Virus record (IMG/VR): IMGVR_UViG_3300012677_000092
Length of the DNA stretch: 64,000 nt
Reading direction: 5' to 3' (one strand)
Origin: a virus
A model generated the notes under the pieces. That model did not search any database, was not told the origin of the DNA, and worked only from the letters and a program-made list of their open reading frames with translations. This document shows, one piece after another, positions 23,395 through 43,524 of the stretch. A program made the position numbers and the translations under genes. The stretch's first letter is position 1; every line of letters begins with the position of its first letter.

Positions 23395-24873
23395 CTATCT
23401 TTTCCAATAACTTGATTTATCAAGAGCTGCTCCGACCTTAGCATTCGGTGCACTTCCTGTATATTTTTTGATCTTTCCTAAATAACAACTTAACGCCAAT
23501 GCATCCGCCCGGTCCGGGGAATCCAATCCTCTTTTCTTCATGTCTTCCTTACTCTCTAATTGTAACTTTCCGTTACTTGCCATAAAATACTTTCGGGATG
23601 ATAACTGCGCTACTGTCTCCGCATCATCGTCTATTTCAATCTCTTTATTTTCGAGTAACTCCCTGACAACGGCCCACATATGTGTAGTTAAATTATTATA
23701 ATGCTCCGCTGCGTCCTTGCCAGCCTTCGTATCTGTCTCAATTCTTTCAGCTGCATTAACAGGTACCACGAACAGACGGTGCAACTTTTGTTCCCGTTTA
23801 ACCTCACGTAAACGGTCCGTTACTCCACCACCAAGACCAGTATCATCAATATTTACATATATTCTGCCTTTGTAGTCCGGAAACTCTTTCAGAATCTTCC
23901 GATACTGGACAACAATATCTCCAACTGTGGCCATCAAGTCCTGTCCTCTGCGTTTAGCCACAATTTTCAGTTTTCCACGAGCATTTCTGTATATTACGGT
24001 CTCATCATTACCAAAACGGGCTACATCCACACCAAGAATAATGTGTGGGAGTAAATTATTTTCATTTAGCTCATGTATCCTGCTGCCGCACTGTTCTATA
24101 ATTGATAATGCTATAAAAACATCATCTTCCTGGTTCGGAAATTCGCCCCTGACACGAACACGGACAACATTACTTTCCCATCCATACTTCTTTACCAGAG
24201 ATTCAATGTTCTCTTTGCTAGTTCTTTTGCTGTCTACTGCCGAAACCGTATGGCATTTATACAGTGCTCTATCTGAAGTGTGGCTATCATAGAATGATCC
24301 ATTTATTTTTGTTGGATTTCCACACATTAATAATTTATTGTTCTTACCTGACAGGGTACCCAGGATTGCTTCCATAATAGGCTCTGCAATACCAGATGCT
24401 TCATCGACGATGAAAAGCATGTTATCCTCATGAAAGCCTTGCATATTCTCAGGTTTGGTCGCCGTTCTTGCTGTCGCAAACCACCGCTTTTCACGACCAT
24501 ACATGTAGATATACGTTTTGGTCCATTTCAGGATTGCTTTTAACAATGGTGAACGTTCTTGCCACTTCGCTGCTTCGGACCATAAAACATCATGTAGCTG
24601 CTGTTTTGTTGGAGCTGTAGCAACGATTCTCGGATATGGAAAACACGTCAAAAACCAAAGAAGTGCAACAGCCTCTATACCAGTCTTTCCAACACCCTGA
24701 CCAGACTTTATTGATACTTTTGGGTTTTCAGCCAGATCCATAAGTGCTATGCATTGCCAATCGTCTGGCTCAAATTTCAGTACTTCCCTTGCATACAACA
24801 CCGGATCTTTTTGGTAAAGAGGAATACGCTGTGTGAAAAATTGCTTTCTTAATAATGCATTATTTGCATTCAT
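23395..24873 (-). CDS. Terminase large subunit
   Basis: SGQGVGKT Walker A, IVDEASG Walker B, GVDVARFGND and SPDRADAL nuclease motifs. Confidence 0.95.
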   Translation of the reverse strand: MNANNALLRKQFFTQRIPLYQKDPVLYAREVLKFEPDDWQCIALMDLAENPKVSIKSGQGVGKTGIEAVALLWFLTCFPYPRIVATAPTKQQLHDVLWSEAAKWQERSPLLKAILKWTKTYIYMYGREKRWFATARTATKPENMQGFHEDNMLFIVDEASGIAEPIMEAILGTLSGKNNKLLMCGNPTKINGSFYDSHTSDRALYKCHTVSAVDSKRTSKENIESLVKKYGWESNVVRVRVRGEFPNQEDDVFIALSIIEQCGSRIHELNENNLLPHIILGVDVARFGNDETVIYRNARGKLKIVAKRRGQDLMATVGDIVVQYRKILKEFPDYKGRIYVNIDDTGLGGGVTDRLREVKREQKLHRLFVVPVNAAERIETDTKAGKDAAEHYNNLTTHMWAVVRELLENKEIEIDDDAETVAQLSSRKYFMASNGKLQLESKEDMKKRGLDSPDRADALALSCYLGKIKKYTGSAPNAKVGAALDKSSYWKR

Positions 24874-25646
24874 GAGCTATCACCATCCTTTGGATTTTCA
24901 CCCATGATGCTTGCTATCCAATCGTCAACCAGTTCATTTTCTTTACCACTATTATCATTCTGAATACGTTCAGTTTCAGCCTTGATTTTTGCTATACGTG
25001 CCTTTTGTTCTTCTGTTACGCTATCCCAATTAGCATGTAACATTTCATCATATTGGCGAATAAGCGAGCGTAATTCTGACATTGCCCTAGCTTGGGCTGT
25101 GAGAAATGTAGCTTGCCTATCCCAAGGAAATTGAAATTCCCATTCTACCTCATTTTTATCCCCTCCTTTAGATATTTTTTTGATCTCTTTAATCATTTCT
25201 TCTTTATTTTCAACATACATTACTCTTTGAGCCCTTAATATGGCAGCATAAGATATCTGAATGTTTTCCCATAGAATATCAAGTGGATCCTTTATATTAA
25301 TCTCTTCAATAATAGAAAGAGCTTCAGGAGGTAGGTACTTTGAAAAAAAGCCATATGTTTCGGCATTCTTATTTCTTTTGGGAGCACCGGCACCAACTGC
25401 ATTTTTATTTCCAACGGGTGCACCCTTTTTCCCCTTAGAAGGTGCACCCTTTCTCCCTGCAGGTGCACCCTGAACCGTTTCCTTATTTTTCGCCTTATCA
25501 CGATTTATCCAAGACTTGATTGTATTTATAGAAATCCCTGTTTTTTCAGCCAATTCCTTGGGTTTTTTGCCCTTTCGGTATTCCTCCAAAACCTGTTCTT
25601 TCATCTTTGTATCTGTCGGAGCTCTTGCTTCATTCACCATCACCAC
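24870..25646 (-). CDS. Terminase small subunit (YqaS-like)
   Basis: N-terminal HTH, GAPVGNKNAVG motif, adjacent to terL. Confidence 0.85.
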   Translation of the reverse strand: MVMVNEARAPTDTKMKEQVLEEYRKGKKPKELAEKTGISINTIKSWINRDKAKNKETVQGAPAGRKGAPSKGKKGAPVGNKNAVGAGAPKRNKNAETYGFFSKYLPPEALSIIEEINIKDPLDILWENIQISYAAILRAQRVMYVENKEEMIKEIKKISKGGDKNEVEWEFQFPWDRQATFLTAQARAMSELRSLIRQYDEMLHANWDSVTEEQKARIAKIKAETERIQNDNSGKENELVDDWIASIMGENPKDGDSS

Positions 25647-25728: not shown

Positions 25729-26283
25729 TTATATTTTAGTAATAAACTCTGCTTTGCTAAAGCCTTCATATCCTTTTGTCATCATTTGAAGAAAGTCCTC
25801 TTTTGTAAAATCAGAAAGTCTAAACACTTCTTCTGGTTTCATACCAAGCTGCTTACCTATCTCTTGAACCGTTTTTCCCTCATCCATAAGTTCTTTCACA
25901 ATCGCTTTCATAGGCTCAAGTAAGTGCGTACCCCTTGCCCTGTTGTGGGTGACTGTTCCATAGATGTTTCCCGCCTTATCTTTATGATCAACGAATACAA
26001 TTAGGACTTTACCACCCAGACGTTCATAAAGTGTTCTCTTATCAGTCTCTCCGGGAGGAACATATGTCCAATCAGGGCTGGAAACGCTCCATCTATGAAA
26101 ACCATCAATAATTACATAATCAGGACGTACCACAATTGGCAATGTCCATCCATTCGCAAATATAGATTGAGTCAGCAGCTCTAAATTCTGCCTTGACACT
26201 CTATTCGGATTATAGTTATTTGGTTTTAACAAATTCCTGTCTACCCATTGCTGAGTGGTTGAAGGCATAAATAATTTATCCAT
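25729..26283 (-). CDS. ibrB: IbrB/YbdM-like ParB/Srx-domain protein
   Basis: PNNYNPN, GWTLPIVV, IIDGFHRW, THNRARGTH; start reassigned to ATG 26283. Confidence 0.8.
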   Translation of the reverse strand: MDKLFMPSTTQQWVDRNLLKPNNYNPNRVSRQNLELLTQSIFANGWTLPIVVRPDYVIIDGFHRWSVSSPDWTYVPPGETDKRTLYERLGGKVLIVFVDHKDKAGNIYGTVTHNRARGTHLLEPMKAIVKELMDEGKTVQEIGKQLGMKPEEVFRLSDFTKEDFLQMMTKGYEGFSKAEFITKI

Positions 26284-27424
26284 TCTTATTCGCCTCCGTT
26301 CTCTTCGCCTCTGAAATGTACTTACCGTAAACCCTCTGATAAAGAGCCCTGAATGTTCTGGATTTTGGATCACCCGAAATAAGCCCTTCATATATCGCTT
26401 TAAAATCCTTTTCATCCGCAATAGTCGAAACAGACATAAAAAAATTACGGTATTTATCCGCAATTTTCCTTTTATGAGGTGTTGTAAAATATATATCCAT
26501 ATTAGTAAATAACTTAATCAACTCTGCCTTATAATCTTTAGGCGGTGTATTATCTTCCATTTCTTTGCGTTTCCTGGAACTTCGGCCAAACATTTCACTA
26601 TCCCAATATAATGCAGCAAGATAAGCATTTGGTTCCCTCCGTATTACCCGGTCCATAAGATCAGGATAATATTCATTCATTTTTACCAAGCTCTTTGCTG
26701 TATCTACTGAAAAGAACTGTGATACTCTAAGCTGTCCCCGGCCGGTACCCGATTGCCACAGGTATAAATAAATATCTGGTATATCAACATGTTCCGTAAG
26801 CAGATATAGCCATACGTCTTTATCAATCCAATCGTATATCGGAAATACCTGGTGTTTGTTCGTCATGCTTTTACCGGTTTTCATCATGGAAGCAATGTTT
26901 TGCAGCCTTTGGACAGATTCTGCTGTTCTTATACCTGTTATTGTTATACCTCCTGCACAGGTTCTAGGTAAAAAATCCTGATAAGCATCAATTCTCGGTC
27001 GTAATAGTGGATGGGTTCGAATAGCAAATGCCGGTGGTTGCCTCACCCATACATTTTGTTTCATGCTGTCCCAGCAGATAAAGGTTTCATCGTTAGACAA
27101 GTCATTGAAGCAATTAAAATGTTTTACTTCACAGCAATACCATTCAAATTTTCCCCCCATTATAAGGAATTTCTTCCGCCATTCCTTTACCTTTTCTTCA
27201 ATACATGGAAATATGGCTTCTTCGTCTATAAACTGTACTATAAGTTGTGACGGATCGATCTCTCCACGTTGCACAAGATTAAGAATAAGCTGTGCTATAC
27301 ATAGACTGTCTTTTCCACCGCTAAAAGACATAAAGACAGGAAGCCCATTCAAGAAAACATTTTTAATCCGGATCTCTGCTGCTTTAACAATATCAATACT
27401 GGCCACACATCGTTTTACAGCCAT
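26276..27424 (-). CDS. ibrA: IbrA/YbdN-like PP-loop ATPase, PAPS-reductase fold
   Basis: SFSGGKDS, FIDEEA, GIRTAESVQR, PIYDW..KDVW. Confidence 0.8.
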   Translation of the reverse strand: MAVKRCVASIDIVKAAEIRIKNVFLNGLPVFMSFSGGKDSLCIAQLILNLVQRGEIDPSQLIVQFIDEEAIFPCIEEKVKEWRKKFLIMGGKFEWYCCEVKHFNCFNDLSNDETFICWDSMKQNVWVRQPPAFAIRTHPLLRPRIDAYQDFLPRTCAGGITITGIRTAESVQRLQNIASMMKTGKSMTNKHQVFPIYDWIDKDVWLYLLTEHVDIPDIYLYLWQSGTGRGQLRVSQFFSVDTAKSLVKMNEYYPDLMDRVIRREPNAYLAALYWDSEMFGRSSRKRKEMEDNTPPKDYKAELIKLFTNMDIYFTTPHKRKIADKYRNFFMSVSTIADEKDFKAIYEGLISGDPKSRTFRALYQRVYGKYISEAKRTEANKNG

Positions 27425-28059
27425 ATCTTCTCACCACACTTCGAACAGACAACAAACCTCCGTACTTCGGTAGCCGATTCATTCCCTGCCGGCGAGTTTA
27501 AAGTTCCTTGATTAGCTGGTTCTGGAACTGTACTTACTTCACTTCCGGTTGGTTCGCTTGCGAGGTTTTCCGCAATTCTTTGTTCCCGTTTCTCATTGCT
27601 TTCTCTTATACTTTGAATCTCTTGTTCATCTAAAGTACCGTATTCCGAAATCTTTTCAGTTATTTCATCAGCATCCGAAACCATCTGCCGTAGTATTTCT
27701 TCATCAAAGCCTGGTATATCCAAATCACCCTGCAGATCCATCAGAAAGTCATTGAGCGTATCCAAGTTCTCGATACCCAAGGAAAAAATCTTGTTATCCG
27801 CTATCATAAGCTTTTTCTTTTGGTTTTCCGTGAGATTCGTGTACTGGTAACACTCCGCTTCTTCTCGACCCATACGTTGCAATGTTTCATATAGACCATT
27901 TCCGGCCAAAATAACATTTTTTTCATCAATTACGATCGGGCGAAGCTGCCCGAACATATTGACACTCTTCTCAAATTCTATTAACTGCTTTTCTGTGTGG
28001 ATCCGAACATTCTTTTCTGGTTGTACCAGTTCTGATAGCCTTTTGATGATTGTTTGCAT
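27415..28059 (-). CDS. ParB-N domain protein with C-terminal zinc ribbon
   Basis: NVRIH, FGQLRPIVIDE, ILAGNG, MIADNKI; C-terminal CSKCG. Confidence 0.8.
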   Translation of the reverse strand: MQTIIKRLSELVQPEKNVRIHTEKQLIEFEKSVNMFGQLRPIVIDEKNVILAGNGLYETLQRMGREEAECYQYTNLTENQKKKLMIADNKIFSLGIENLDTLNDFLMDLQGDLDIPGFDEEILRQMVSDADEITEKISEYGTLDEQEIQSIRESNEKREQRIAENLASEPTGSEVSTVPEPANQGTLNSPAGNESATEVRRFVVCSKCGEKIWL

Positions 28060-28124
28060 TTTAAATCCTCCTTAGATTTTCTAAAGGAGTTAAGACGTAT
28101 GAAACCGCCTGCAAACGGTTGAAA

Positions 28125-28916
28125 TCATTTGATGTTAAGTGTCTTCAAATACTTTTTAGCACTTGGAATACTCTTTGCAGCCTCCTGTATTATACCAGGA
28201 TCAATCTCACATATTTCTTTCCAAGCATTTTCTAATGAACCGGTCCACTGCCGGGCCGGCCATGGGTGGGTGCCACACAGGTACCCGTTGCACCAATCAT
28301 AAATAGGCGGCATTGGCACATTGTTATAATGTATATATGCCAAAACCGCCTCATGCTTCCATCCGGCCAAAGGGCTGTACCTTGTCACCCCTTTACCATC
28401 CGTATAAATATTGCTGCCTTTCCCACAGTAATTCCCGTCTGCCCTCCGACGCCCAAGTAATATCATATCCAGACCATGAGCCTTATAGTATTTTGCCTGG
28501 GCCCTATGCTGCACAATAGCAAACCACCTGGCAGCTATCTTGCTGTCTTTAGGAAATAACATTTCCGGATGCTTCTGCAGCCACTCCATATTCTGTCCGG
28601 TATTGATGACCTCCAGACTTTCCGGTTTATTATCCTCCACCCAAGACATGAATGCAGGATATTCCAAATCACATACGGCTAGCATACAATCAGTAATACC
28701 CGCCATCCGGCATATTTCTCCGAGTACCAGGCTATCTTTCCCGGCACTCCATGCATAGGCCGCTTTCTTGCCGGCGGTCTGCTCTTTGATCTCCTCCACC
28801 GTGGCGGCTACCAGTTCATCCAACTCTGCCTTAGATACCAGCTCTTCTATTTGTGCTATAGCTTTCAACCAATCATCATTTTTAACAGACTGTTTTCTAC
28901 CGAGTATAGCTTTCAT
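28125..28916 (-). CDS. Second PP-loop ATPase of PAPS-reductase fold
   Basis: AWSAGKDS, LGRRRAD, SPLAGWKHEAVLAYI, PIYDW; lacks CysH ECGLH tail. Confidence 0.75.
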   Translation of the reverse strand: MKAILGRKQSVKNDDWLKAIAQIEELVSKAELDELVAATVEEIKEQTAGKKAAYAWSAGKDSLVLGEICRMAGITDCMLAVCDLEYPAFMSWVEDNKPESLEVINTGQNMEWLQKHPEMLFPKDSKIAARWFAIVQHRAQAKYYKAHGLDMILLGRRRADGNYCGKGSNIYTDGKGVTRYSPLAGWKHEAVLAYIHYNNVPMPPIYDWCNGYLCGTHPWPARQWTGSLENAWKEICEIDPGIIQEAAKSIPSAKKYLKTLNIK

Positions 28917-30288
28917 GCTGTACCTCCCATCTTGAAATAAGGATAGCTGCTAATCCGCTCAACAGCACTGTTATCAGGCTACCTATAGTTTTATATAGGG
29001 ACAGGTTATAAACGTTCCCATAGGCGAAAATAGGAAGCCCTACAGCCAAGGCAGCAAGCACCCCTATAATAATTCCTCTTGCAGTCAATTTGACTTTGCT
29101 TAGAGTAAGGATTGTCGGGAGTAGGGTACTTGCCCGGAGCGTACCGTAAAAAAGAAATAAATGTGTTACCGTTAATCCGGGGATACTTGCTATTAACAAT
29201 CCGGCTATCAATAAGAGAAGCATTGATAACCTGGATATTTTGATACTGCTTTTCTTAAATATGTCTGTTGTCAAAGATGAGATAGCGCATAAATTACTGT
29301 CTACTGTAGACAGCAATCCGGATATGACCATAAATAAAAAGGGTATCATTACCCATTTAGGAAAACGATACAGAATGTATTCCATATTCACCGTTCCAGT
29401 ATCGGCAGGGGAAAAGCCTGTGCCAGCTGCAATAAATCCGATAATGCCCATGCATAAAGGTACTATTCCAAAAAGGACAGCACCTAAACCGAATGCCTTA
29501 CCAATTTTACCTTCTCGGATAGAGAATGCCCTTTGCCAAAAGCATTGATCTCCGAACGGACCGGAAATTAAGCCGATAACAGATGGCAATCCGAATCCCA
29601 GGAGTATCTCTTTTCCTTTGGTAGAGAATAAACTTGTATATTCTCCGCTTTGTCCACCTAAACCAGATAATAAGTCTGATACACCATTTCCTTTTATTAA
29701 AATGCAGGCAGCCAGTCCAATACCGGTTAATAGGATAAATACCATTTGCACTGCATCCGTTGTGACAGATGCTTTGATGCCGGAAAATTGAGAATAGGAA
29801 AAAGCAATAACAGCAAGGGCAATTATCATTGTAGAATATGGTAATCCTGTTATTATACTTAGCATTTTCCCACCGGCCAGTAACTGAACTCCAGTTGAAA
29901 AAACAGACAAAGCCATAAGTTGAAACAAATATACCCGTCTTACACCATTGGAATTGTACTTCTGCTTCATGTAGCCAGATAATGTTATCCCCTTTGGTAG
30001 CTCTTCCCTAATGCTTTTTGCAAATGGGATAAATAAAATAAGGCATAATACATTCGGTACCAGAAACCAAAACAGTCCAACGATACCTTCTGTAAATGCC
30101 TTTTCAGTTGATACAAATAATGCCGGCGCCCAAATCCACGTTGTTGCTATACTAAGAGCGGATTTAATCATACCCATATTTCTATCTGCAACAAAAAAAC
30201 TCTCGGCATTCTTTTCCCTTTTTGTAAACAATACAGTAACTGCAATCATAATGATTGCATAAATAATTAGGACTATTAGTCCATTCAT
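28897..30288 (-). CDS. Sodium:solute symporter (SSS/SLC5) family transporter
   Basis: About 13 hydrophobic segments, FFVADRNMG, TWIWAPAL, SGIKASVTTDAVQ, DQCFWQR, SGLLSTVDSNL motifs; start at ATG 30288 with GGAGG RBS. Confidence 0.9.
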   Translation of the reverse strand: MNGLIVLIIYAIIMIAVTVLFTKREKNAESFFVADRNMGMIKSALSIATTWIWAPALFVSTEKAFTEGIVGLFWFLVPNVLCLILFIPFAKSIREELPKGITLSGYMKQKYNSNGVRRVYLFQLMALSVFSTGVQLLAGGKMLSIITGLPYSTMIIALAVIAFSYSQFSGIKASVTTDAVQMVFILLTGIGLAACILIKGNGVSDLLSGLGGQSGEYTSLFSTKGKEILLGFGLPSVIGLISGPFGDQCFWQRAFSIREGKIGKAFGLGAVLFGIVPLCMGIIGFIAAGTGFSPADTGTVNMEYILYRFPKWVMIPFLFMVISGLLSTVDSNLCAISSLTTDIFKKSSIKISRLSMLLLLIAGLLIASIPGLTVTHLFLFYGTLRASTLLPTILTLSKVKLTARGIIIGVLAALAVGLPIFAYGNVYNLSLYKTIGSLITVLLSGLAAILISRWEVQHESYTR

Positions 30289-30371: not shown

Positions 30372-30406
30372 TGAAAAAAGAGCTGTCAGCACATTACCAA
30401 ACAGCT
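30372..30406 (-). terminator. Hairpin plus U-run in the leader of the symporter gene
   Basis: Minus strand gagctgt...acagctc followed by TTTTTT. Confidence 0.6.
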
Positions 30407-30542
30407 CCTTGATGTATAATTAAAATTTTACAGATACAGTTTAACACAGGTCATATTGTAAAGGCAATGTAATTATTTTGTAGAAAGCGGTTTGTATGTA
30501 ATTACATAAAATCCTCCTATGATTTTTCTTTTATTCCTTCTT

Positions 30543-31457
30543 TTACTGTATTCTTGAATAATGATCCTTTAATAAATCAATCCATTTGTGTATCAATTTA
30601 AGCATTATTCTACTATTTAAATCTTTAAACTCTCCCAAATAATTTAACGAAATTATGCCTATCGACTCTGCGGCATATATTGCAGGCGTATCAATTCCAT
30701 ACATCTCAGGACCTATACCAGTTGCAACTTTTTTATAATTTCCAAACCTACGTAGAGTTCCTTCGGTACAAGCATGTATCGCTATACTTGCAGACTCATA
30801 GGTTTTTTTCCAATGCCGGTTCTTATGCTTGCATTTATTAAAAATTGCATTGAATGTTATATAATTTTCTTCCGGATATCCTTCAAAGCAGGGCAAACTC
30901 CTTGCCCAATCATAGTAATTTTTAGAATCTTTGTGCTTATAAAATTTTTCACCAGCCTCTTCCCCATTTTCTGCAATAAATTGAGACAGAACTCCAAGTT
31001 CATATAAGGTCCTCCATCTAGCCCAAGCACCATCTGCAAGCCCCGCAGATACAAGGGTTATAACCTCTAAGTACACTTGGCACCCTCTTATATAAATTTC
31101 ACTAAGACTTTTCATTAAAAAAGAATTGCCTTGGTTTCTTTGATAGCTTTGTAATATCTCTTTACACATATAATACATTATCTTAGATAATCTTAATGCC
31201 TTTCCCCATTTATCTATGAATTTTCTATAAAACTCCTCATCGCCTCTTTCACTATTTTCTATTATAACCCTTGCATTACTTTCAAAATTATTACAATACA
31301 TTTCTGCAGAGACATCAATTATGCCTAAAGATAGTTCTGTAAAATAAGTTTTATCAAATTTATCAATTATCTCTTCTTCACTACGGCCGATTTCTATTTC
31401 ATCGGATAACCACTTTTCCACTGATTCCATAAGATTATCCATGTGTTTATCATTCAT
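30543..31457 (-). CDS. DUF5677-like protein, AT-rich moron
   Basis: EVITLVSAGLADGAWARWRTLYE helical motif; visibly more AT-rich than neighbours. Confidence 0.55.
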   Translation of the reverse strand: MNDKHMDNLMESVEKWLSDEIEIGRSEEEIIDKFDKTYFTELSLGIIDVSAEMYCNNFESNARVIIENSERGDEEFYRKFIDKWGKALRLSKIMYYMCKEILQSYQRNQGNSFLMKSLSEIYIRGCQVYLEVITLVSAGLADGAWARWRTLYELGVLSQFIAENGEEAGEKFYKHKDSKNYYDWARSLPCFEGYPEENYITFNAIFNKCKHKNRHWKKTYESASIAIHACTEGTLRRFGNYKKVATGIGPEMYGIDTPAIYAAESIGIISLNYLGEFKDLNSRIMLKLIHKWIDLLKDHYSRIQ

Positions 31458-35250: not shown

Positions 35251-36309
35251 TTACCTACCTTTCATTTGCACTGGAAGAACTATCGCCTGCATTTCGCTGT
35301 TTTCAGCTCTGACTAACATTGGCATTTTCCCACCACCAAATGATAGTGAAATATCTTCACTGGTGAAAGCTTTCAAGGTTTCCAAAACCAGCCGGGAGTT
35401 GAACCCTATTAACAGCTTATCCATTGACTTCTGTAACTGGATAGTTTCGGAATAGTCTGCCGTACTATCCTTGATACTCAATTTTAAAGTATCTCCTTCA
35501 ATATCAAATTTTGTAGGTGTCATTTCATCCGTACAGAGTTTTGCACGAACAATAGCATCTAGCAGCTCCGATCGCTTTACTTCCGTTTCCATAGGAAGAT
35601 TGCTAAACATTTTTGTATAGGAAAAATAGTTCCCATCTATCAGTCTTGTATATACCTCATATTCCTCGGATCGGAAGATAGCACTGAATTTATCATAATC
35701 AATTGAGATTTCCCCGTTCATTTCCAATGATAGCAGTTTTTCAACAGCTCCCCTTGGTATTAACAGTTTAAATTTTCCATCAAAATCCTGTTGATCCCAG
35801 GCAAGTACATGACCGTCCAGACCTACAAAATTAAGTTTCCCTCCAACGGCTTCCAGACAAAGAGCTGTCATAAGTACGTTGCTGCTTTTCACCGGAATTG
35901 CATATAAAACATGTGCCATGGATTCTTTCAATAAATTACTCTTGATCTTTGTGCTACCTCCTCCTTCGGTAATATGATTTGTAGAATACAAATAATCTTC
36001 AGCCGGGAAACTATGATAGGAATTTTTAATCTTCCCAGTCTTAATCGTTAAAATATGCTTATCATCTTCCGTAAAACTAACTACCCCTTCTGGTAAGTTT
36101 TTAATCAAATCAAATGCCTTAGACGGTATGATGAATGATTCCCCCTCTACACCCTCTAATTTCGCCTTGATGGTCATCTCTCCATTGCTTGCTATTAAAT
36201 AACCATCCTGAACCAAAATACCCATTAATGAAGGATTATTGCTGCTCTTTGGTACTATACTTTTCAGTTTATCAATCTTCTTTGCCAGTTCTGTTTTCTC
36301 AATCAACAT
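35251..36309 (-). CDS. dnaN: DNA polymerase III beta sliding clamp homologue
   Basis: 352 aa; LDGHVLA, RLIDGNYF.Y, IGFNSRLVLETL, IVLPVQ. Confidence 0.85.
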   Translation of the reverse strand: MLIEKTELAKKIDKLKSIVPKSSNNPSLMGILVQDGYLIASNGEMTIKAKLEGVEGESFIIPSKAFDLIKNLPEGVVSFTEDDKHILTIKTGKIKNSYHSFPAEDYLYSTNHITEGGGSTKIKSNLLKESMAHVLYAIPVKSSNVLMTALCLEAVGGKLNFVGLDGHVLAWDQQDFDGKFKLLIPRGAVEKLLSLEMNGEISIDYDKFSAIFRSEEYEVYTRLIDGNYFSYTKMFSNLPMETEVKRSELLDAIVRAKLCTDEMTPTKFDIEGDTLKLSIKDSTADYSETIQLQKSMDKLLIGFNSRLVLETLKAFTSEDISLSFGGGKMPMLVRAENSEMQAIVLPVQMKGR

Positions 36310-36850
36310 TTATTTCCACTCCTTCCAACATTAACAATGTTCCCTTTTTTTCTGTCAGCCTGTATCGCTCCAGTTCATTTAGTTTCATATACTTTCTTCC
36401 GTACTGTCTTTTCATATCCCGGAATACCTTCCAAGGCACCCTGTAAAAGCTTTGGAATCCCATTGACACCATCACGAAGCACTGGGCGCCCATCCTCTGA
36501 AAGTCATCAAAGTTCTGCCGCTGCGTTTCGGTAACAACATCTTCTCGTATCCGATCACTGTCCGTGTGTTTTGCTTCGAAGATTATCGCCGTTCCATCAC
36601 ACAACACCCCTTTATAGTCTGGTTGAGCCTGTTTTTCAAAACAAGCTATGTATTGCCCTTTACCTCTTTCACCATATGGTTTCAAAGGACGCATGGGTTC
36701 CGGCGTTTTCTCCACAATTGCCATTCCCTTTTCACGGTAGTAGCTACAGGATGCGTCCAGCATTCCTTCAAACATTTCGCCGGCAGCTTTGGAACGGCGG
36801 CCGGCAAGTTGCCGTTTTATATCAGTCAAGATATCCACCTTCTTTTGCAA
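36299..36850 (-). CDS. recU: RecU-like Holliday junction resolvase
   Basis: KTPEP, PDYKGVL...FEAKHT. Confidence 0.85.
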   Translation of the reverse strand: MQKKVDILTDIKRQLAGRRSKAAGEMFEGMLDASCSYYREKGMAIVEKTPEPMRPLKPYGERGKGQYIACFEKQAQPDYKGVLCDGTAIIFEAKHTDSDRIREDVVTETQRQNFDDFQRMGAQCFVMVSMGFQSFYRVPWKVFRDMKRQYGRKYMKLNELERYRLTEKKGTLLMLEGVEINVD

Positions 36851-37094
36851 ATCTCTTTAATTTATCCACCGTTCCCGGACCTATCCCGGGGATGATTCCA
36901 TGAGTAGATAGTGGTTCAAAAAAATCCTTTATATCTCTACCCTTTTTTGCTTCATTCCTGCCCTCACTTCTGGCTTTTTCCACACGGTCTTCTACGTAAT
37001 GAACTAACTGTTCATCTGTTAATTTCCGTAGTTTTACCGCTTTTTCATGAATTATATTTTCATCATTCGTCCTGCGACAGCTTCTTTTTTTCAC
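36822..37094 (-). CDS. Hypothetical phage protein
   Basis: AVKLRKLTDEQLV...GIGPGTVDKL. Confidence 0.55.
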   Translation of the reverse strand: MKKRSCRRTNDENIIHEKAVKLRKLTDEQLVHYVEDRVEKARSEGRNEAKKGRDIKDFFEPLSTHGIIPGIGPGTVDKLKRFAKEGGYLD

Positions 37095-37720
37095 TCTTCC
37101 TCCCCCTCTGCTTCATTATCTCCCACTTCAACTATGCGAGCCGCCCACATGTCGGCCCAATGGATTATCATGCTCAATGCGGTTTCTTTGCCGGAATAGG
37201 TGTACTTTAATACACTGTACATCCCGTTATGATTCAATATTGCATAGCTTTCGTCCTCTGTCAGTTCAATGAATTGGGAGGCTATCTGTATCCCCCTGAT
37301 TTCGTGCTCTACAGGAATCAGCTCCGGGTTCGTAACAAATGGCTTTTTGGGGGATTGATAAGGTTCGGGAGCCGGATTCGCCTTAGTCACCCTCCCCTTT
37401 AACATGTTGGGTACATAGTTTGGCTTCCCGAACTGCCCCATTTTTCCAAGGTCATGTAACAATGCTGAAATAATGACCGAATTTCTCCAATATTCAATGT
37501 GCGGCTGCTCATAAAACGTATGTAATAGATTCATAGCCATATCGCATACGTTCAAACTATGCTCTGCCAGTCCGCCCTCATATGCCAGATGATAACTGCC
37601 GCTACATGGAGAAGAGAAAAAACCGTTCTCCTCCATATGTTCAATAAGTCTTTCCATGCCCGGACGTTCCGTTTCTAAAAGTAATACAACAATTCTTTCT
37701 TTAATTTCCATATCATTCAT
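37091..37720 (-). CDS. HD-domain phosphohydrolase
   Basis: YHLAYEGGLAEHS, LLHDLGK, HWADM. Confidence 0.85.
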   Translation of the reverse strand: MNDMEIKERIVVLLLETERPGMERLIEHMEENGFFSSPCSGSYHLAYEGGLAEHSLNVCDMAMNLLHTFYEQPHIEYWRNSVIISALLHDLGKMGQFGKPNYVPNMLKGRVTKANPAPEPYQSPKKPFVTNPELIPVEHEIRGIQIASQFIELTEDESYAILNHNGMYSVLKYTYSGKETALSMIIHWADMWAARIVEVGDNEAEGEEE

Positions 37721-38708
37721 CCTCCTTGAAATTTATCAACTTCGGTATTTCTATTTTCATTTCATTGCAAAAACCAATAAAACATTCACGGCACATATGG
37801 CATAGCTGCTTCGGCATTTCTCCGCGCTTGGACCTAACCGCCATTGTTATCATTTCACTTTTCTTCATGTGCTTGCCACATCTGCAGCAATCGCCTTCAA
37901 GCTTATCTCTTAGTTTAGGGCTTAAAACTTGCCTTTTCAGCTGCTCTGGAAACTCCCTTCGCATATTTTGCTCTCCAACTATGCTAATCAGGCTGTCTTT
38001 CATAAACACTGGCACGCCGCAGCTATCAGCTTCAAGGACAATCTTACGAATCCATTCCCATTCTGGTACGGTTTTATCCTTCCTGCGTCCTGTTTCCGCA
38101 CCAATAATAATCCATTCCGGCATATGAGCCATATTTTGAATTTCTATCCGTTCCATCAGAGGTTCAATTGAAACAAACCAATGGAATTTTTTATCTTCAA
38201 ACCAAGCAAACGGATCTTCTTGTTTGGTAACAGATGTTCCAAACCAAAAATTATCCCTCCAAGGCAACTTCTTTTGTTCCTCAAGTTTGATATAACGATC
38301 AGGATATTTCGTGAGAAACAAGTAGTTATGCTGTTCATATTTTTCACAGACCTTAAATACTTCATTGATCCATTCATCCGGAACCCAGTCACCAAATATG
38401 TCAGCCATGGCGCCTACAAATATGTTGAATCCATTCTTTTTATTTTCCAGAGTGTTCAATCTGTATTTATGAAAGGTAGGGGCAAATCCAAAGGGATAAG
38501 GTAGCACTCCACCGGTTTGAGCCACAAATTTTTCTTCAAGAACGAACAAATCGCCTTCCTTTTTGTACTTGTTTGAACTCAGGTTCATCCGTATATCACC
38601 TGAAAATCTTACTGTCATTTTCCTTGCATAACAGTATTCACAGTCATGCCGACATCCGGTAATCGGGTTAAACACATAATCACACCATTCAATCTTGCTT
38701 CGGTTCAT
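37713..38708 (-). CDS. DUF5131 (phage Gp37/Gp68) radical-SAM-like protein with C-terminal zinc-finger extension
   Basis: SKIEWCD..NPITGC...CEYCYA, FVGAMADIF, WIIIGAETG; start reassigned to 38708. Confidence 0.8.
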   Translation of the reverse strand: MNRSKIEWCDYVFNPITGCRHDCEYCYARKMTVRFSGDIRMNLSSNKYKKEGDLFVLEEKFVAQTGGVLPYPFGFAPTFHKYRLNTLENKKNGFNIFVGAMADIFGDWVPDEWINEVFKVCEKYEQHNYLFLTKYPDRYIKLEEQKKLPWRDNFWFGTSVTKQEDPFAWFEDKKFHWFVSIEPLMERIEIQNMAHMPEWIIIGAETGRRKDKTVPEWEWIRKIVLEADSCGVPVFMKDSLISIVGEQNMRREFPEQLKRQVLSPKLRDKLEGDCCRCGKHMKKSEMITMAVRSKRGEMPKQLCHMCRECFIGFCNEMKIEIPKLINFKEDE

Positions 38709-38844
38709 ATGAAGTCGCCTCCTCCATCCTTGGTAATTTATCAAGTACATTGCAGGCCTGCTCTATTGCCTCTACATCATAAAAACTAAGTTCTGCACTA
38801 TCTTTAATATCAATTAATCTTTCAACAACTTCTCCGATAATCAT
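38689..38844 (-). CDS. Small hypothetical protein
   Basis: RBS, overlapping stop/start packing. Confidence 0.45.
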   Translation of the reverse strand: MIIGEVVERLIDIKDSAELSFYDVEAIEQACNVLDKLPRMEEATSYEPKQD

Positions 38845-39282: not shown

Positions 39283-41400
39283 CTATCCCACCATCCTTAC
39301 CTTATTACTGGCTTTCTTTTTATCTAACTCCTGCATTTTTCTTTCAAAAGCACCGACGAATGCCTTTACAACGCCATTCATACCGCAGTTTCTTTTTCCT
39401 CTACATTGAGCCACTTTACCATTACGGTACTCCATTGTGTAATACGGCTGCCCAGGATCTTCTTTTTTTCGTATAAACAAGATCATTGTCTCTCTTTTTG
39501 CCACTTTATCAACGTAGGTACCCACACAGTGATTGAGCGTCTGTCCCTCCAGTTTTATATCTTCAGCACTTTCAGGCATCACGATCATAAGCCCCTTATA
39601 CTCCATTTGTAGCGGATTTACTTTACCGATCTCTCTAAGTGCTTCTTCCACACATTTCTTATATTCAGCCAGTGCGATAGCTGCTTGCCTATCTCGTTCC
39701 TCTTTTTCCTTTCTAGCGATTTCATCTTGCTTTGCCTGATATTCAGCACTCACACGATCATGTACCGGATAGAAATTACCAGGGAAAAGATCGAAAGGAT
39801 TTTTCAAATCATATCCAAGTTTCTTACACCATTTCGTATACTCCAACCAGTCAGAACTAACCCGCTCCTTCTTATCACTTTCAGTATCACTTTTCCGTTT
39901 TTGGGGAATATGATACATTGCATTGCAGCATCCTTCCTGCTCTAGATCAGGAAGAGACAGGCTCTGTTTATCAAAGTATTTCAACATTTTATGTAATGTT
40001 GTGTATTTCGTCATTCTGATCAAATCCGTTTTACACCCATGAACTGTATATAAGTACATAAGTTCTTTAGGTTCGGGCATATAATCAATCTCATGACTTG
40101 CCTGTAACAATCTCAACAAATCACTATCTCCATCTAATTCCTGTAAAATTTTTATGTAAGGCTTCGTAATTTTCAAAATTTCACACATAGATTTTCCGTC
40201 AGTATTCAGCCGATGCGTTCCTGATTTCAATCCTCTTGCTAGATTAAATAATCCCATTTTTATGAAATATTCCATATATGGTCTGTATTTAAAGTCTCTC
40301 AAATAGTGCCAATGTGGTAGCTCTTCACCAACATATTGATTTTGTAATATTTCCAAAGAACAATATTGATATGATGTACCGCTCCATGCTTCAGGTAAGT
40401 TATTCGTATATAATACGGAATTTGCACAGTTCCACTTATCCATATCATTGCACCATCTGGTTTTCCCTGACTGTTTGAAGTCACCCCACTCATACGTTTT
40501 TGTTTTTCCTTCTTCATAAAATATCCTGACTCGTTCGCCTAAATATAAGCTGCTGACCTTAAATTCTTTTGGGGAATAAGTTTTACATGCTTTGAAATAT
40601 CTCATGACAAACCCTTGCTCCGTCTTTTGCACTATTGAAAGCCATGCATCATCATTTATATAGGCTGGTAATAATCCATAGGCTTTATATTTCCCATGAG
40701 TACCACATACCGGACATTCTCCTTTTTCGTTATTGCGGGGCTTTGATATCTCCTTATCTATATGAAATTTTGTTTTGCAATGGGTGCAGAAACAATCAAG
40801 TTTCTTTTTCCGGGTACCCGATTCATAAATGAGATACCGGCTGAAATATAATCCAGTTTCATCGGCCCAATTTTCAAAGTCCCCTGGAAGTTCTCCAACT
40901 GTTTTCATTTTAGTGTCAATTGAATCTTTTTCTTTCTTATGGCGTAGCTCCAGCCTTTCAGCCATAACCTCATCCTGAAATCTTTCAAATGCCCTCCAGA
41001 TGCTTGAATCTCCCTTATTGATATACTTATTGATAAACATTTTCGCATTATGAAAATCCTTATCGGTGGCAAATGCCGTATTGAATCCCTTCTTTCCGGT
41101 ATCCCACCAATACCATCCAATGATATTTTTTAAACTTCCCGTTTTCCATTTAACTCTTGATTCTTTTAAGTCCTGAGTGATATAATCATTACAGGAAATA
41201 AATGTCCTGAATGCTGCTTCTGATTTCTTCTTTATGAGTTGCGACCTCTCGAAGAAATTCAGGAGCAGTATTATTTCGCCGGATAATTCAAAGCTGTTCG
41301 TTGTAACAAAATAGTTTTCTCTCTCTATCCTCTCGGCCAGAAAAAACATTTCTTTAGAAGCCTCCGATCTTTTTACCTTTGCAAGTTCTCTTTTATTCAT
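39283..41400 (-). CDS. PcfJ-domain protein
   Basis: C-terminal EGQTLNHCVGTY...ILFIRK...PYYTME. Confidence 0.85.
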   Translation of the reverse strand: MNKRELAKVKRSEASKEMFFLAERIERENYFVTTNSFELSGEIILLLNFFERSQLIKKKSEAAFRTFISCNDYITQDLKESRVKWKTGSLKNIIGWYWWDTGKKGFNTAFATDKDFHNAKMFINKYINKGDSSIWRAFERFQDEVMAERLELRHKKEKDSIDTKMKTVGELPGDFENWADETGLYFSRYLIYESGTRKKKLDCFCTHCKTKFHIDKEISKPRNNEKGECPVCGTHGKYKAYGLLPAYINDDAWLSIVQKTEQGFVMRYFKACKTYSPKEFKVSSLYLGERVRIFYEEGKTKTYEWGDFKQSGKTRWCNDMDKWNCANSVLYTNNLPEAWSGTSYQYCSLEILQNQYVGEELPHWHYLRDFKYRPYMEYFIKMGLFNLARGLKSGTHRLNTDGKSMCEILKITKPYIKILQELDGDSDLLRLLQASHEIDYMPEPKELMYLYTVHGCKTDLIRMTKYTTLHKMLKYFDKQSLSLPDLEQEGCCNAMYHIPQKRKSDTESDKKERVSSDWLEYTKWCKKLGYDLKNPFDLFPGNFYPVHDRVSAEYQAKQDEIARKEKEERDRQAAIALAEYKKCVEEALREIGKVNPLQMEYKGLMIVMPESAEDIKLEGQTLNHCVGTYVDKVAKRETMILFIRKKEDPGQPYYTMEYRNGKVAQCRGKRNCGMNGVVKAFVGAFERKMQELDKKKASNKVRMVG

Positions 41401-41412
41401 TCCTTTTGCCCC

Positions 41413-42234
41413 CTAAAAATTAAATAATGATATCTGACCTTCCATTTCATTTTTCTTCTTATGTTCGGAGATGATTTTATTCGATTCTGATTTATCGGTT
41501 GCAGATTGTATCACTTTTCCCGGGTCTTTGGTATCTGTTTTTTTTGTACTTTTTTTAACAGCCTCCTTTTGTTTCTTTTTAACCTCGGCTTGTTTTTTCT
41601 TTCTCTCTGCTTCCTGCTTGGCTTTCAACTCTTCAGTAGCTTTATCATCCAACTTGAAGTAATCTTCCGCCAGCTTTACACAATCATCCCTGCCAATAGC
41701 CACACATTGCATTCCACTTCTCTCTTTTACCTTTTTCTTTACCTGTTCATAAATGTAATTCATGCATTTTTCCATTGTTTTATGTTCCTGTAAGATAAGA
41801 TCTTGTAATTCCCCTATATATGAAATATGGTCTGCTATATACTCACCAACGTCTTTTAAATTCTCTAAATTCTTAGCTTGTCCTTGAAGTTTCTCGCTGG
41901 CTGAAGTAAACTGTTCGCCACCTGATTTTTTCTCTTTCGCTTCAGGGTTTGTCTGCTCTTTTTTTTCTTCGATTTTTGCATCTTCTTTCAATGCTTTTCT
42001 AACCGATTTCCAAGTATCCGACTGCAATGCTTTAGCATTATGGTCTTCTACCTTCCCTGGCTCCATAAGTAAAGACCTGCTGCCATTTATGTATTCTTCT
42101 ACATCTTTCTCTGGAACATTATTTTCCTGACCAAGCAGCCTGATTTCCTCAATTTCATCTGTTTCTTTGAGGTTTTTGGCAAGCTCGTTTAGATCTTCTA
42201 TAGACTTTATATCTCCAAAAATCTTTTCACTCAT
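41413..42234 (-). CDS. PcfK-like (AcrIIA9-related) domain protein
   Basis: KTMEKCMNYI...VAIGRDDCVKLAEDYF, ends EGQISLF; directly upstream of PcfJ. Confidence 0.65.
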   Translation of the reverse strand: MSEKIFGDIKSIEDLNELAKNLKETDEIEEIRLLGQENNVPEKDVEEYINGSRSLLMEPGKVEDHNAKALQSDTWKSVRKALKEDAKIEEKKEQTNPEAKEKKSGGEQFTSASEKLQGQAKNLENLKDVGEYIADHISYIGELQDLILQEHKTMEKCMNYIYEQVKKKVKERSGMQCVAIGRDDCVKLAEDYFKLDDKATEELKAKQEAERKKKQAEVKKKQKEAVKKSTKKTDTKDPGKVIQSATDKSESNKIISEHKKKNEMEGQISLFNF

Positions 42235-42718
42235 CTATCTGCGCTCCTTTCTTTTCAAAAACTTCCGGCCAACAGTAGGCACAAATTAGTTCATATTCCA
42301 AATTAAAATTCAATGGAATTTTAAAGTGCTTTGTCGGATTTGACTTTAATGCATACTCTCCTAAAACTCCCTCATCTTCATAAAGTAACCCGATTAAACG
42401 TCCAAGAGTTCCTTTTTTAACTTGTACCTTATTCGACATATCTGCATATTCAAATTCATAATCAGAAATTTCAAGCTGATATTGTATAAAGTAATCATTG
42501 CAATGCACAAACTTAGATAAATGTCTTGCCCCTGAATATGCGTCAATATCTCTCCACCATTCCGGCAAACCAGACCATCCTGCTTCCATTCCCGGACTAA
42601 TACGATACAATGTCATAAGCTCATCTCTCGGTTTTCTGCAACGCATTCCATTTTTCCAAGCATAGAACTCATAAAATATGAATTGTTCTCCAAGTTTGCA
42701 AGGGAGATACCATTTCAC
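42227..42718 (-). CDS. Hypothetical protein
   Basis: ORF packed in operon. Confidence 0.5.
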   Translation of the reverse strand: MKWYLPCKLGEQFIFYEFYAWKNGMRCRKPRDELMTLYRISPGMEAGWSGLPEWWRDIDAYSGARHLSKFVHCNDYFIQYQLEISDYEFEYADMSNKVQVKKGTLGRLIGLLYEDEGVLGEYALKSNPTKHFKIPLNFNLEYELICAYCWPEVFEKKGAQIDE

Positions 42719-43524
42719 ACTTCCACCTCCTTATCAAAATTAAAGAAAAAATAAAATTTATTTTCCTGATTTACCTGCTTCTTAAATTTTGATTTTTCCT
42801 TTGACATACTATCCATAACGGCAAATGCCCGTCTCCAATGCCAAACCTTGCTATTATATAGGGGTGTATACCAAAATTCCTGTCCTTCCTGCTCTGCCGG
42901 CATAAGTGGGGAGCCAACGACCGGATTTGTAAGGCTGTTGCCAATTACTATATATCCCGGACACCCCATTAATGATAATTGGATATATGCCATCATCCCT
43001 ACAACTCTATCAATGTCTTGACCGACGAAAAGCACATGGTTTTGATAATTTATCTGCTGCCTTTGTAAAGTATTTGCAGCTGCTATCAACATTGCTCCGC
43101 CGCCAACGCATGGATCACACACTGAAATCCATCCTTTTTCCTCTATTTCCTTTTCACAACTTCCGATAGTCGTTTCCGCCATCATCCGGGAAACAGTATA
43201 TGGTGTGAAAAACTGCCCTTTCCAATGGTTTCCCAGATTCAGCTCCATATATAACGAACCGAGAAAATCCTGATCTGGATCCCGCTCTAATGCATTCACT
43301 ATGATTCCAAATAAGTGTGCCGGTTTCTCAACCCCTCCAAGTCGTTTTATGCACTTGGCATATTCCTTTTCCCTTGATTCAAACCGTGGTTCTGTCCTGT
43401 CGGTCACATTGCTGAGGGAGCAGGCCATTGCAGTTATCAAGTCTGCCCAAACCTCCCATGAGGATCTTGTATAGCAAAGCTTTTTAAAGAGGTCCAGAAA
43501 TTCTTTTTTACTTGCACTATTCAT
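42715..43524 (-). CDS. N6-adenine DNA methyltransferase-like protein (HsdM-type N-terminal half)
   Basis: GQFFTP, DPCVGGGAML, GQDID; no NPPY/F seen. Confidence 0.75.
   Translation of the reverse strand: MNSASKKEFLDLFKKLCYTRSSWEVWADLITAMACSLSNVTDRTEPRFESREKEYAKCIKRLGGVEKPAHLFGIIVNALERDPDQDFLGSLYMELNLGNHWKGQFFTPYTVSRMMAETTIGSCEKEIEEKGWISVCDPCVGGGAMLIAAANTLQRQQINYQNHVLFVGQDIDRVVGMMAYIQLSLMGCPGYIVIGNSLTNPVVGSPLMPAEQEGQEFWYTPLYNSKVWHWRRAFAVMDSMSKEKSKFKKQVNQENKFYFFFNFDKEVEV

Follow-up and report, generated by a model that had tools for sequence, protein, structure and literature searches.

IbrA/IbrB-type pairs, in which a PP-loop enzyme is encoded beside a ParB-fold protein, are among the commonest unexplained neighbours of phage terminase genes and are routinely mislabelled as sulfur-metabolism "auxiliary metabolic genes" (AMGs). 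Such pairs are found in mycobacteriophages, in Arthrobacter, Bacillus, Streptococcus and Flavobacterium phages, and in Escherichia coli as IbrA/IbrB of the ECOR-9 island and YbdN/YbdM of K-12. The sole phenotype on record for IbrA/IbrB, taken from database annotations, is activation of prophage-borne eib genes. Here, a 64,000-nucleotide stretch of viral DNA (IMG/VR record IMGVR_UViG_3300012677_000092, hereafter the window) was analysed. It carries a five-gene cassette consisting of a sodium:solute symporter (SSS) transporter, a PP-loop enzyme (PP2), a ParB-fold protein with a CxxC tail (ParB-CxxC), an IbrA-like PP-loop enzyme, and an IbrB-like ParB-fold protein. The cassette is real and abundant and, from its gene content, is best placed as a variant among phage modules of the IbrA/IbrB type (PP-loop plus ParB-fold). 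It shares a full-length IbrA and an adjoining ParB-fold partner with the E. coli pairs, and adjacency to the small and large terminase genes (terS and terL) with the pairs of cultured phages (phrog_2302 plus phrog_2159). To these it adds an importer, an unrelated-looking second PP-loop enzyme, and the ParB-fold protein with its CxxC tail.

Comparable pairings are known from DNA modification and defense. DndB/DndC, and likewise SspD and the BrxP protein of type-4 BREX, also combine an ATP-pyrophosphatase of the phosphoadenosine phosphosulfate (PAPS) reductase superfamily with a ParB-fold (DGxHR) protein. DndB (PMC11662687) and DpdB (PMC12839542) are established examples of ParB-fold proteins that partner a DNA-modifying enzyme. 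A 2025 survey of the ParB fold, in which the cassette was not treated, described CTP, ATP and GTP binding and frequent fusion to phage methyltransferases (PMC12704722). As the nearest mention found in print, PHROGs 424 and 2302 were listed under "host metabolism" in a prophage of C. clostridioforme LM41 (PMC11318856). An earlier note, made from the letters of the window, had recognized the cassette and knew of no characterised pathway combining these genes; full-text literature searches likewise found no functional study of the cassette.

Cassette organization and recurrence

The cassette comprises five intact open reading frames on the minus strand and heads the DNA-packaging operon of a gut-Clostridia prophage. 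The gene order is SSS transporter, PP2, ParB-CxxC, IbrA, and IbrB, followed by terS, terL, and a Mu-type portal gene. Assignments of the cassette genes and of terS, terL and portal were concordant across Pfam, PHROGs, and NCBIfam. The tight packing described by the earlier note was reproduced, with overlaps at three junctions (SSS/PP2, 20 nt; ParB-CxxC/IbrA, 10 nt; IbrA/IbrB, 8 nt) and one gap, between PP2 and ParB-CxxC.

Approximately 280 IMG/VR and genome loci were surveyed. Relatives of the SSS transporter (~60% identity) were present on 143 IMG/VR contigs, from which 81 loci were fetched. Behind the transporter, PP2 was found in 75 of these loci, ParB in 74, IbrA in 74, and IbrB in 71, in the same order wherever the contig was long enough; the complete five-gene order was present in ~70 of the 81. 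A search with IbrA returned 207 contigs, and the best 80 of them have the full order wherever upstream DNA suffices, save two with deletions. The transporter was also found in at least 101 species-representative genomes, all from Clostridia except one short contig binned to Bacteroidales; carriers include Lachnospiraceae, Oscillospiraceae, Anaerotruncus, Flavonifractor, Anaerovorax, and one C. difficile assembly. The cassette is complete in 60 of the 69 species-genome loci with room for it; PP2 alone is missing from six, and the other three are degraded. Recurrence across hundreds of independent contigs is far beyond chance. The earlier note, which had staked its proposal on these genes co-occurring elsewhere, is clearly borne out on this point.

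The importer-linked version is abundant in Clostridia of the human, animal, and rumen gut. The terL genes of carriers differ, with 50–80% identity or no match. Since the terminase type varies and the position of the cassette before terS is constant, the cassette moves between phage backbones.

PP2 and its glutaminase link

As a PP-loop ATP-pyrophosphatase, PP2 belongs to the PAPS-reductase-like superfamily and has the motifs SAGKDS (residues 57–62) and GRRxxDGN. Its PP-loop is intact and invariant. The PP2 family comprises 586 representatives at the 50% clustering level. Some long PP2-family proteins were considered as informative domain fusions and set aside as assembly or gene-call chimeras. 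The best CysH-type score of PP2 was 25.8 bits, to NF002537, against a cut-off of 154 bits. In an alignment to yeast PAPS reductase, no equivalent of the CysH-type C-terminal catalytic Cys (ECGLH) was found in PP2. It has only two conserved Cys residues, neither kept family-wide; C214 aligns with the internal SIGD-YH region of the yeast enzyme, and no conserved Cys lies past residue 214.

The predicted structure of PP2 has a predicted local distance difference test (pLDDT) score of 93. Its neighbours were generic only (PAPS reductase, CysD, and FAD synthase, at template modeling (TM) scores of ~0.5). Across structure searches with PP2 and IbrA, the matches were PAPS/APS reductase, CysD, FAD synthase, TtuA, LarE, GMP synthase, and YcfA (TM ~0.3–0.6). 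These searches gave no specific functional neighbour for either enzyme and place both at the level of the adenine-nucleotide alpha-hydrolase fold.

Gene context is more specific. In three SSS-type cassettes, a class-II glutaminase of ~195 amino acids (aa) is encoded directly after PP2, in the position taken by the 65-nt gap in the window. One of these (L072) encodes an IbrA of 84% identity, the closest among the transporter-fetched loci, and another (L159) is from a Hespellia metagenome-assembled genome. Glutaminase genes also follow PP2 in three importer-less loci, and the six glutaminase-bearing loci come from at least three lineages. The proteins match Pfam GATase_6 above its cut-off and start with MCG; those of the SSS-type cassettes have an N-terminal MCG(I/L)(F/Y/W)G catalytic-Cys signature along with RLAT, HNG, and DSE motifs. 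In phage cassettes, this glutaminase family was always placed directly after PP2-type genes. Glutamine-dependent amidotransferases are built in this way, pairing a glutaminase with a PP-loop ATP-pyrophosphatase. Because a stand-alone glutaminase is found repeatedly beside PP2, we infer from gene context that PP2 may be the synthetase half of such an amidotransferase. The glutaminase gene is absent from the cassette of the window. The general chemistry put forward in the earlier note, in which a PP-loop enzyme adenylates its substrate and a nucleophile is then substituted, agrees with the intact motifs, and the glutaminase beside PP2 in relatives fits a nitrogen nucleophile. A simple exchange in which the importer substitutes for the glutaminase as nitrogen supply was considered and dropped, as three cassettes carry both.

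IbrA and IbrB

The IbrA-like protein has the motifs SGGKDS, GxRxxESxxR, and PIYDW; its C-terminal domain is helical and shows homology to DUF3440. In profile-profile comparison, it aligned to DUF3440-bearing IbrA proteins over residues 4–362 (hhalign 100%, E 5e-40); PF11922 itself was not reported in it at E<0.01. This alignment makes the protein an IbrA/DUF3440 family member over its full length. Its predicted structure is of moderate quality (pLDDT 72.5), with the same superfamily-level resemblance as PP2. Both PP2 and IbrA have invariant catalytic motifs (PP-loop and GxRxxES). In IbrB, the motifs DGFHRW and THNRARG are invariant, the former in 55 homologues.

The earlier note had described "twin" PP-loop enzymes and "twin" ParB proteins, which went too far. 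The PP2 and IbrA profiles match only in the PP-loop core (hhalign 88%, E 3e-6), making the two distant superfamily relatives, and PP2 can be absent while ParB-CxxC stays. A recent duplication giving rise to PP2 and IbrA was rejected on the same core-only similarity.

Neither ParB-fold protein reached the level of a partition ParB in TIGR00180, IbrB scoring 22.8 bits against a cut-off of 58.45 bits and ParB-CxxC having no match. Only the N-terminal ParB/Srx fold is present in them, with no partition-type helix-turn-helix or C-terminal dimerisation domain, and no parA is found in the operon.

Similarity of IbrA to DndC is local. A motif of ~55 residues is common to IbrA, DndC, and BrxP (PADLOC 3e-8 and 2e-7; DndC match at residues 160–211), and IbrA scored 24.9 bits to TIGR03183 against a cut-off of 290.4 bits. 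No dndA/iscS, dndD, or dndE was found in the cassette or its annotated neighbours. The [4Fe-4S] Cys residues of DndC are essential (PMC11662687). In contrast, the Cys residues C97, C105, and C117 of IbrA are ≥95% conserved in the near clade; other cassette lineages and the IbrA proteins of cultured phages lack them. A three-Cys [4Fe-4S] thiolation enzyme of the TtuA/DndC type was therefore dropped as a general description of IbrA. Dnd chemistry also concerns sulfur, whereas the glutaminase link of PP2 points to nitrogen. On these sequence grounds, the cassette can be assigned neither to the Dnd systems nor to the CysH sulfur genes.

ParB-CxxC protein

The ParB-CxxC protein consists of an N-terminal ParB/Srx-fold domain, an acidic, disordered low-complexity linker, and a conserved tail, (V/I)CPxCGExIWL. 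The N-terminal domain matches the N-terminal region of PADLOC MTase_II (1.3e-13). The protein thus resembles phage ParB-domain DNA methyltransferases (phrog_498, MTase_II) in its N-terminal ParB module and its location before the terminase genes, but it lacks a methyltransferase domain and has the acidic linker and CPxCGExIWL tail instead.

The tail has one conserved CxxC (C205 and C208) at the extreme C-terminus, encoded at 27415–27460 of the window. It occurs in every importer-linked lineage and is missing from the importer-less homologues of Arthrobacter phage Laroye and Bacillus phage PBC5, which have a different C-terminal domain. The term "Zn-ribbon" used in the earlier note overstated this feature, which is a single CxxC and not a four-ligand ribbon. 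The tail might supply half of a zinc site shared between molecules or serve as a docking peptide. It resembles the CPxCG motif of the Rad50 zinc hook and might mediate zinc-dependent dimerisation.

SSS transporter

Translation of the transporter was assigned to the ATG at 30288, which has a GGAGG 8 nt before it; database gene calls begin at this ATG too (463 aa). The protein has ~12 hydrophobic segments. Its Pfam SSF score of 62.8 bits is above the gathering score of 22.8, and its TIGR00813 score of 102 bits is below the cut-off of 184 bits. The family profile spans the whole core of the DUR3, CHT, SGLT, and NIS structures. By these profile matches, the protein is a member of the sodium:solute symporter family (TC 2.A.21). 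More than 2200 related clusters at 90% identity are present in public data. The name "pantothenate permease" was given to the transporter by ESM Atlas only automatically and was not adopted.

Compared with solved structures, the family profile matched DUR3 urea/H+ symporters best (4e-25), followed by the SLC5A7-type choline transporter (3e-21); sugar, iodide, monocarboxylate, and vitamin carriers matched at 1e-9 or weaker. A W-x-W-A aromatic motif in the first core helix is common to DUR3 and the phage transporter. The relationship to DUR3 and SLC5A7 is only distant, and the phage protein is much shorter than DUR3. Because of this profile affinity, and of an SsuA/TauA-like binding protein in a variant with an ABC importer (below), the matches suggest that the imported solute is small and polar and probably contains nitrogen or a sulfonate group; candidates include urea, amines, and compounds resembling choline or taurine.

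Variant lineages and cultured relatives

In a second lineage (L248, L251, L252, L254, L255, L257, and L277), IbrB and IbrA are swapped and the order is SSS transporter, a ~200-aa single-pass protein, PP2, ParB-CxxC, IbrB, IbrA, and terS/terL. The ~200-aa single-pass membrane protein encoded between SSS and PP2 (L248:6391–6993, L277:4388–4999, and relatives) is conserved and has no family match. Another lineage has a ~330-aa membrane protein in the transporter slot, which profile comparison identified as a shortened SSS homologue (hhalign 98.8%, E 5e-17); its treatment as a separate importer family was dropped on this result. In L278, an ABC permease and an SsuA-family binding protein are encoded directly before PP2 and ParB. 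This type of binding protein is SsuA/TauA-like, with weaker matches to a putative urea-binding family. The importer is thus an integral part of the cassette, as the earlier note had supposed, being kept through gene-order rearrangement and represented in other lineages by the shortened homologue or the ABC importer.

Importer-less versions retain PP2, IbrA, and IbrB and encode extra soluble enzymes, including a bicupin, an S-adenosylmethionine (AdoMet) decarboxylase, a SET-domain protein, an SDR, and a dGTP-diphosphohydrolase-like or HD protein. The phage-specific bicupin is present in seven importer-less loci and in none of 243 importer-bearing loci. A specific identity for it was considered and rejected: its PDB profile matches include only generic cupins, and "(S)-ureidoglycine aminohydrolase" is an automatic name of its structural neighbours. 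A further gene order was observed in L269 (2573–5473), where a 966-aa large terminase with a Hint_2 (intein) match is encoded beside IbrA, IbrB, and PP2.

Among cultured phages, Arthrobacter phage Laroye (gp5–gp10) and Bacillus phage PBC5 encode a ParB-IbrA-ParB trio followed by a methyltransferase and terS/terL. Judged from these gene orders, the stable core is IbrA, IbrB, and a second ParB-fold protein, and PP2, importers, and tailoring enzymes appear as added layers. Since PP2 is sometimes absent while ParB-CxxC stays, the ParB-IbrA-ParB set looks older and PP2 looks like an added enzyme.

Five of these observations are new in this analysis: the glutaminase link, the recognition of the short importer as an SSS homologue, the DUR3/CHT affinity, the importer-specific tail of ParB-CxxC, and the absence of the bicupin from loci with importers.

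Proposed function and alternatives

We tentatively favour a late-expressed, importer-fed, ATP-dependent modification, most likely of phage DNA just before packaging, a reading that is quite plausible while falling short of probable. The SSS transporter would import a small polar compound, probably one containing nitrogen. PP2 would then adenylate an oxygen of a carboxylate, carbonyl, or phosphate, which nitrogen would replace; in the window phage, where the glutaminase is absent, gene context suggests that free ammonia or an amine would be used instead. IbrA would act with two ParB-fold proteins, IbrB being the constant partner. Together, IbrA, IbrB, and ParB-CxxC may form the DNA-directed part that guides the chemistry, as DndB/DndC and DpdA/DpdB suggest by analogy. 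Three features favour DNA as the target: placement in the late operon, a ParB domain of the methyltransferase type, and tailoring enzymes encoded by relatives.

A fuller version is possible, though on balance unlikely. Hundreds of gut-Clostridia phages would share a DNA hypermodification pathway fed by an environmental metabolite, in which PP2, with or without its own glutaminase, aminates the imported compound or uses that compound as the amine, and IbrA, IbrB, and ParB-CxxC install the product on a base or phosphate of phage DNA shortly before packaging. The imported compound would be small and nitrogenous or sulfonated, and such a pathway would give the IbrA/IbrB (YbdN/YbdM) family a first biochemical function. 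Along the lines of the earlier note, the imported solute may be ligated to bases or backbone, and restriction or CRISPR may thereby be evaded.

Dpd and other 7-deazaguanine systems are similar in design, combining a PP-loop amidation enzyme and a class-II glutaminase with a ParB-fold NTPase helper and a salvageable precursor. Their PP-loop amidotransferases include QueC and Gat-QueC, and they have transporters for precursor salvage. PP2 lies on the PAPS-reductase branch and not on the QueC branch, so the likeness is one of design and not of homology. No homologues of the TGT/DpdA transglycosylase, QueC, QueD, or QueE were found in the cassette.

Several points weigh against modification of DNA. 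The cassette has no DNA-acting catalytic domain (glycosylase, transglycosylase, methyltransferase, or nuclease). Some importer-less relatives encode nucleotide-pool enzymes (dGTP_diPhyd_N, HD, and NUDIX), so nucleotides rather than DNA could be the substrate. The ParB fold also occurs in the small-molecule kinases SerK and Srx (PMC12704722). The importer matches, to urea, choline, and a sulfonate-type binding protein, agree on no single compound. A co-fold of the SSS transporter with ParB-CxxC, bearing on possible docking of the tail, scored 0.00 and counts neither way.

The first alternative, which we consider unlikely, is a precursor-level pathway. In it, a non-canonical nucleotide or base would be made or salvaged by the importer and the two PP-loop enzymes for incorporation by a polymerase, with the ParB-fold proteins as NTP-binding or kinase subunits rather than DNA binders. 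A PP-loop enzyme with a glutaminase is the classic design of nucleotide amidotransferases; the ATPPase subunit of GMP synthase, YcfA, and TilS are among the fold neighbours; dGTP_diPhyd_N, HD, and NUDIX genes lie close by in importer-less relatives; and ParB folds bind ATP, GTP, and CTP and include small-molecule kinases (PMC12704722). However, the cassette heads the late packaging operon, past the replication genes, which is the wrong time to feed replication. In addition, ParB domains like that of ParB-CxxC are found fused to DNA methyltransferases, and the conserved core includes no polymerase, dNTP kinase, or pool-cleansing enzyme.

Next in likelihood, and improbable, is a regulatory or packaging accessory, in which IbrA/IbrB and the extra ParB protein, as NTP-dependent DNA clamps or co-activators, turn on late genes or mark the pac/cos region. 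This would agree with the historical "co-activator" label. The PP-loop domains would sense or consume a metabolite, and the importer would supply the signal. The eib phenotype, the only one recorded for IbrA/IbrB, is of this kind, the position immediately upstream of terS is constant, and ParB-family proteins are known to serve as transcriptional clamps. Invariance of the catalytic PP-loop and GxRxxES motifs in both enzymes argues otherwise, and a glutaminase and importers would be costly for a mere regulator. Related cassettes also carry tailoring enzymes (methyltransferase, cupin, AdoMet decarboxylase, SET, and SDR), which are typical of a chemical pathway.

We give only a slim chance to an anti-defence or RNA-directed set that modifies or destroys a host immune signal, tRNA, or other RNA with an imported co-substrate. 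Many PP-loop enzymes work on tRNA, and TtuA, NcsA, and TilS are among the fold neighbours, but the cassette has no RNA-binding domains (THUMP, PUA, or TRAM), its constant link is to the terminase and not to early anti-defence regions, and the ParB-CxxC domain is DNA-methyltransferase-associated.

Auxiliary sulfur metabolism, as boosted sulfate reduction or sulfonate uptake and reduction, is very improbable: the PHROG and Pfam names (database label "phosphoadenosine phosphosulfate reductase, moron/AMG"), the SsuA/TauA-like binding protein of the ABC variant, and the placing of the same two PHROGs under "host metabolism" in LM41 (PMC11318856) speak for it, but PP2 and IbrA fall far below every CysH, APS-reductase, and CysD cut-off (IbrA without a CysH match above noise), both have the full ATP-pyrophosphatase PP-loop that CysH lacks, PP2 is without the C-terminal catalytic Cys motif, and the constant company is ParB-fold proteins and terminase, with no linked CysN, CysC, sulfite reductase, or thioredoxin.

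If the cassette is a modification pathway that draws on an external metabolite, the DNA chemistry of these phages, and hence their restriction or CRISPR sensitivity and sequencing behaviour, would vary with the metabolites available in the gut. Nucleic-acid chemistry would gain a new type of reaction, and a widespread misannotation would be set right. With PP2 as a candidate amidotransferase, the glutaminase link offers a concrete entry into the biochemistry, and cultured phages that encode the core trio, Arthrobacter phage Laroye among them, are tractable test systems.

Features of the locus and its surroundings

Coordinates of the cassette, the packaging genes that follow it, and the glutaminase and bicupin genes of related loci are listed in Table 1.

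Table 1. Coordinates and database matches of the cassette genes, adjacent features, and enzymes of related loci
Feature	Coordinates	Strand	Length and matches
Window
SSS transporter	28897–30288	-	463 aa; Pfam SSF 3.5e-17; phrog_20720 7e-188 (full length)
PP2	28125–28916	-	263 aa; PAPS_reduct 2.4e-10
PP2/ParB-CxxC gap	28060–28124		65 nt
ParB-CxxC protein ("ParBZn")	27415–28059	-	214 aa; phrog_620 3e-45; phrog_498 7.5e-27
IbrA-like PP-loop enzyme	26276–27424	-	382 aa; PAPS_reduct 2e-11; phrog_2302 5.6e-89
IbrB-like ParB/Srx-fold protein	25729–26283	-	184 aa; ParB_N 2.2e-5; phrog_2159 4.6e-65
terS, first packaging gene past the cassette	24870–25646	-	NF040601 9e-55; phrog_509 5e-84
terL	23395–24873	-	phrog_2 8e-42; phrog_5902 3.5e-72
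Candidate terminator-like hairpin	30374–30408	-	GAGCTGT/ACAGCTC stem, 14-nt loop, T6; read from the sequence
Related loci
Class-II glutaminase directly after PP2, SSS-type cassettes	L072:10246–10830; L159:9245–9835; L169:9208–9810		~195 aa
Class-II glutaminase after PP2, importer-less loci	L237:1158–1784; L243:7780–8445; L244:5586–6125
Bicupin	L270:4716–5582; L238:1868–2632; L242:4622–5497; L244:4020–4829; L250:2897–3643; L258:1560–2291		~250–290 aa; motifs QTxHTHP...H...HPDSDFGP...HPMxNRT

The candidate hairpin lies in the 254-nt spacer between a DUF5677 gene and the cassette. It was not reported by an automatic scan, for which its loop is too long. As weak evidence, the hairpin suggests that a new (late) transcription unit may begin at the cassette. 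The DUF5677-family gene (2e-11) is located just upstream of the cassette at 30543–31457, in an AT-rich area (GC 0.33, 30–32 kb).

The early region includes overlapping genes at 37091–38750 that encode an HD-domain phosphohydrolase and a DUF5131 (phage Gp37/Gp68-type) protein. At 35251–36850 and 39283–43524, the window encodes a DNA polymerase III beta-clamp homologue, a RecU resolvase, PcfJ- and PcfK-like proteins, and an N6-adenine DNA methyltransferase. As the phage has its own N6-adenine DNA methyltransferase gene, its DNA is probably methylated too.

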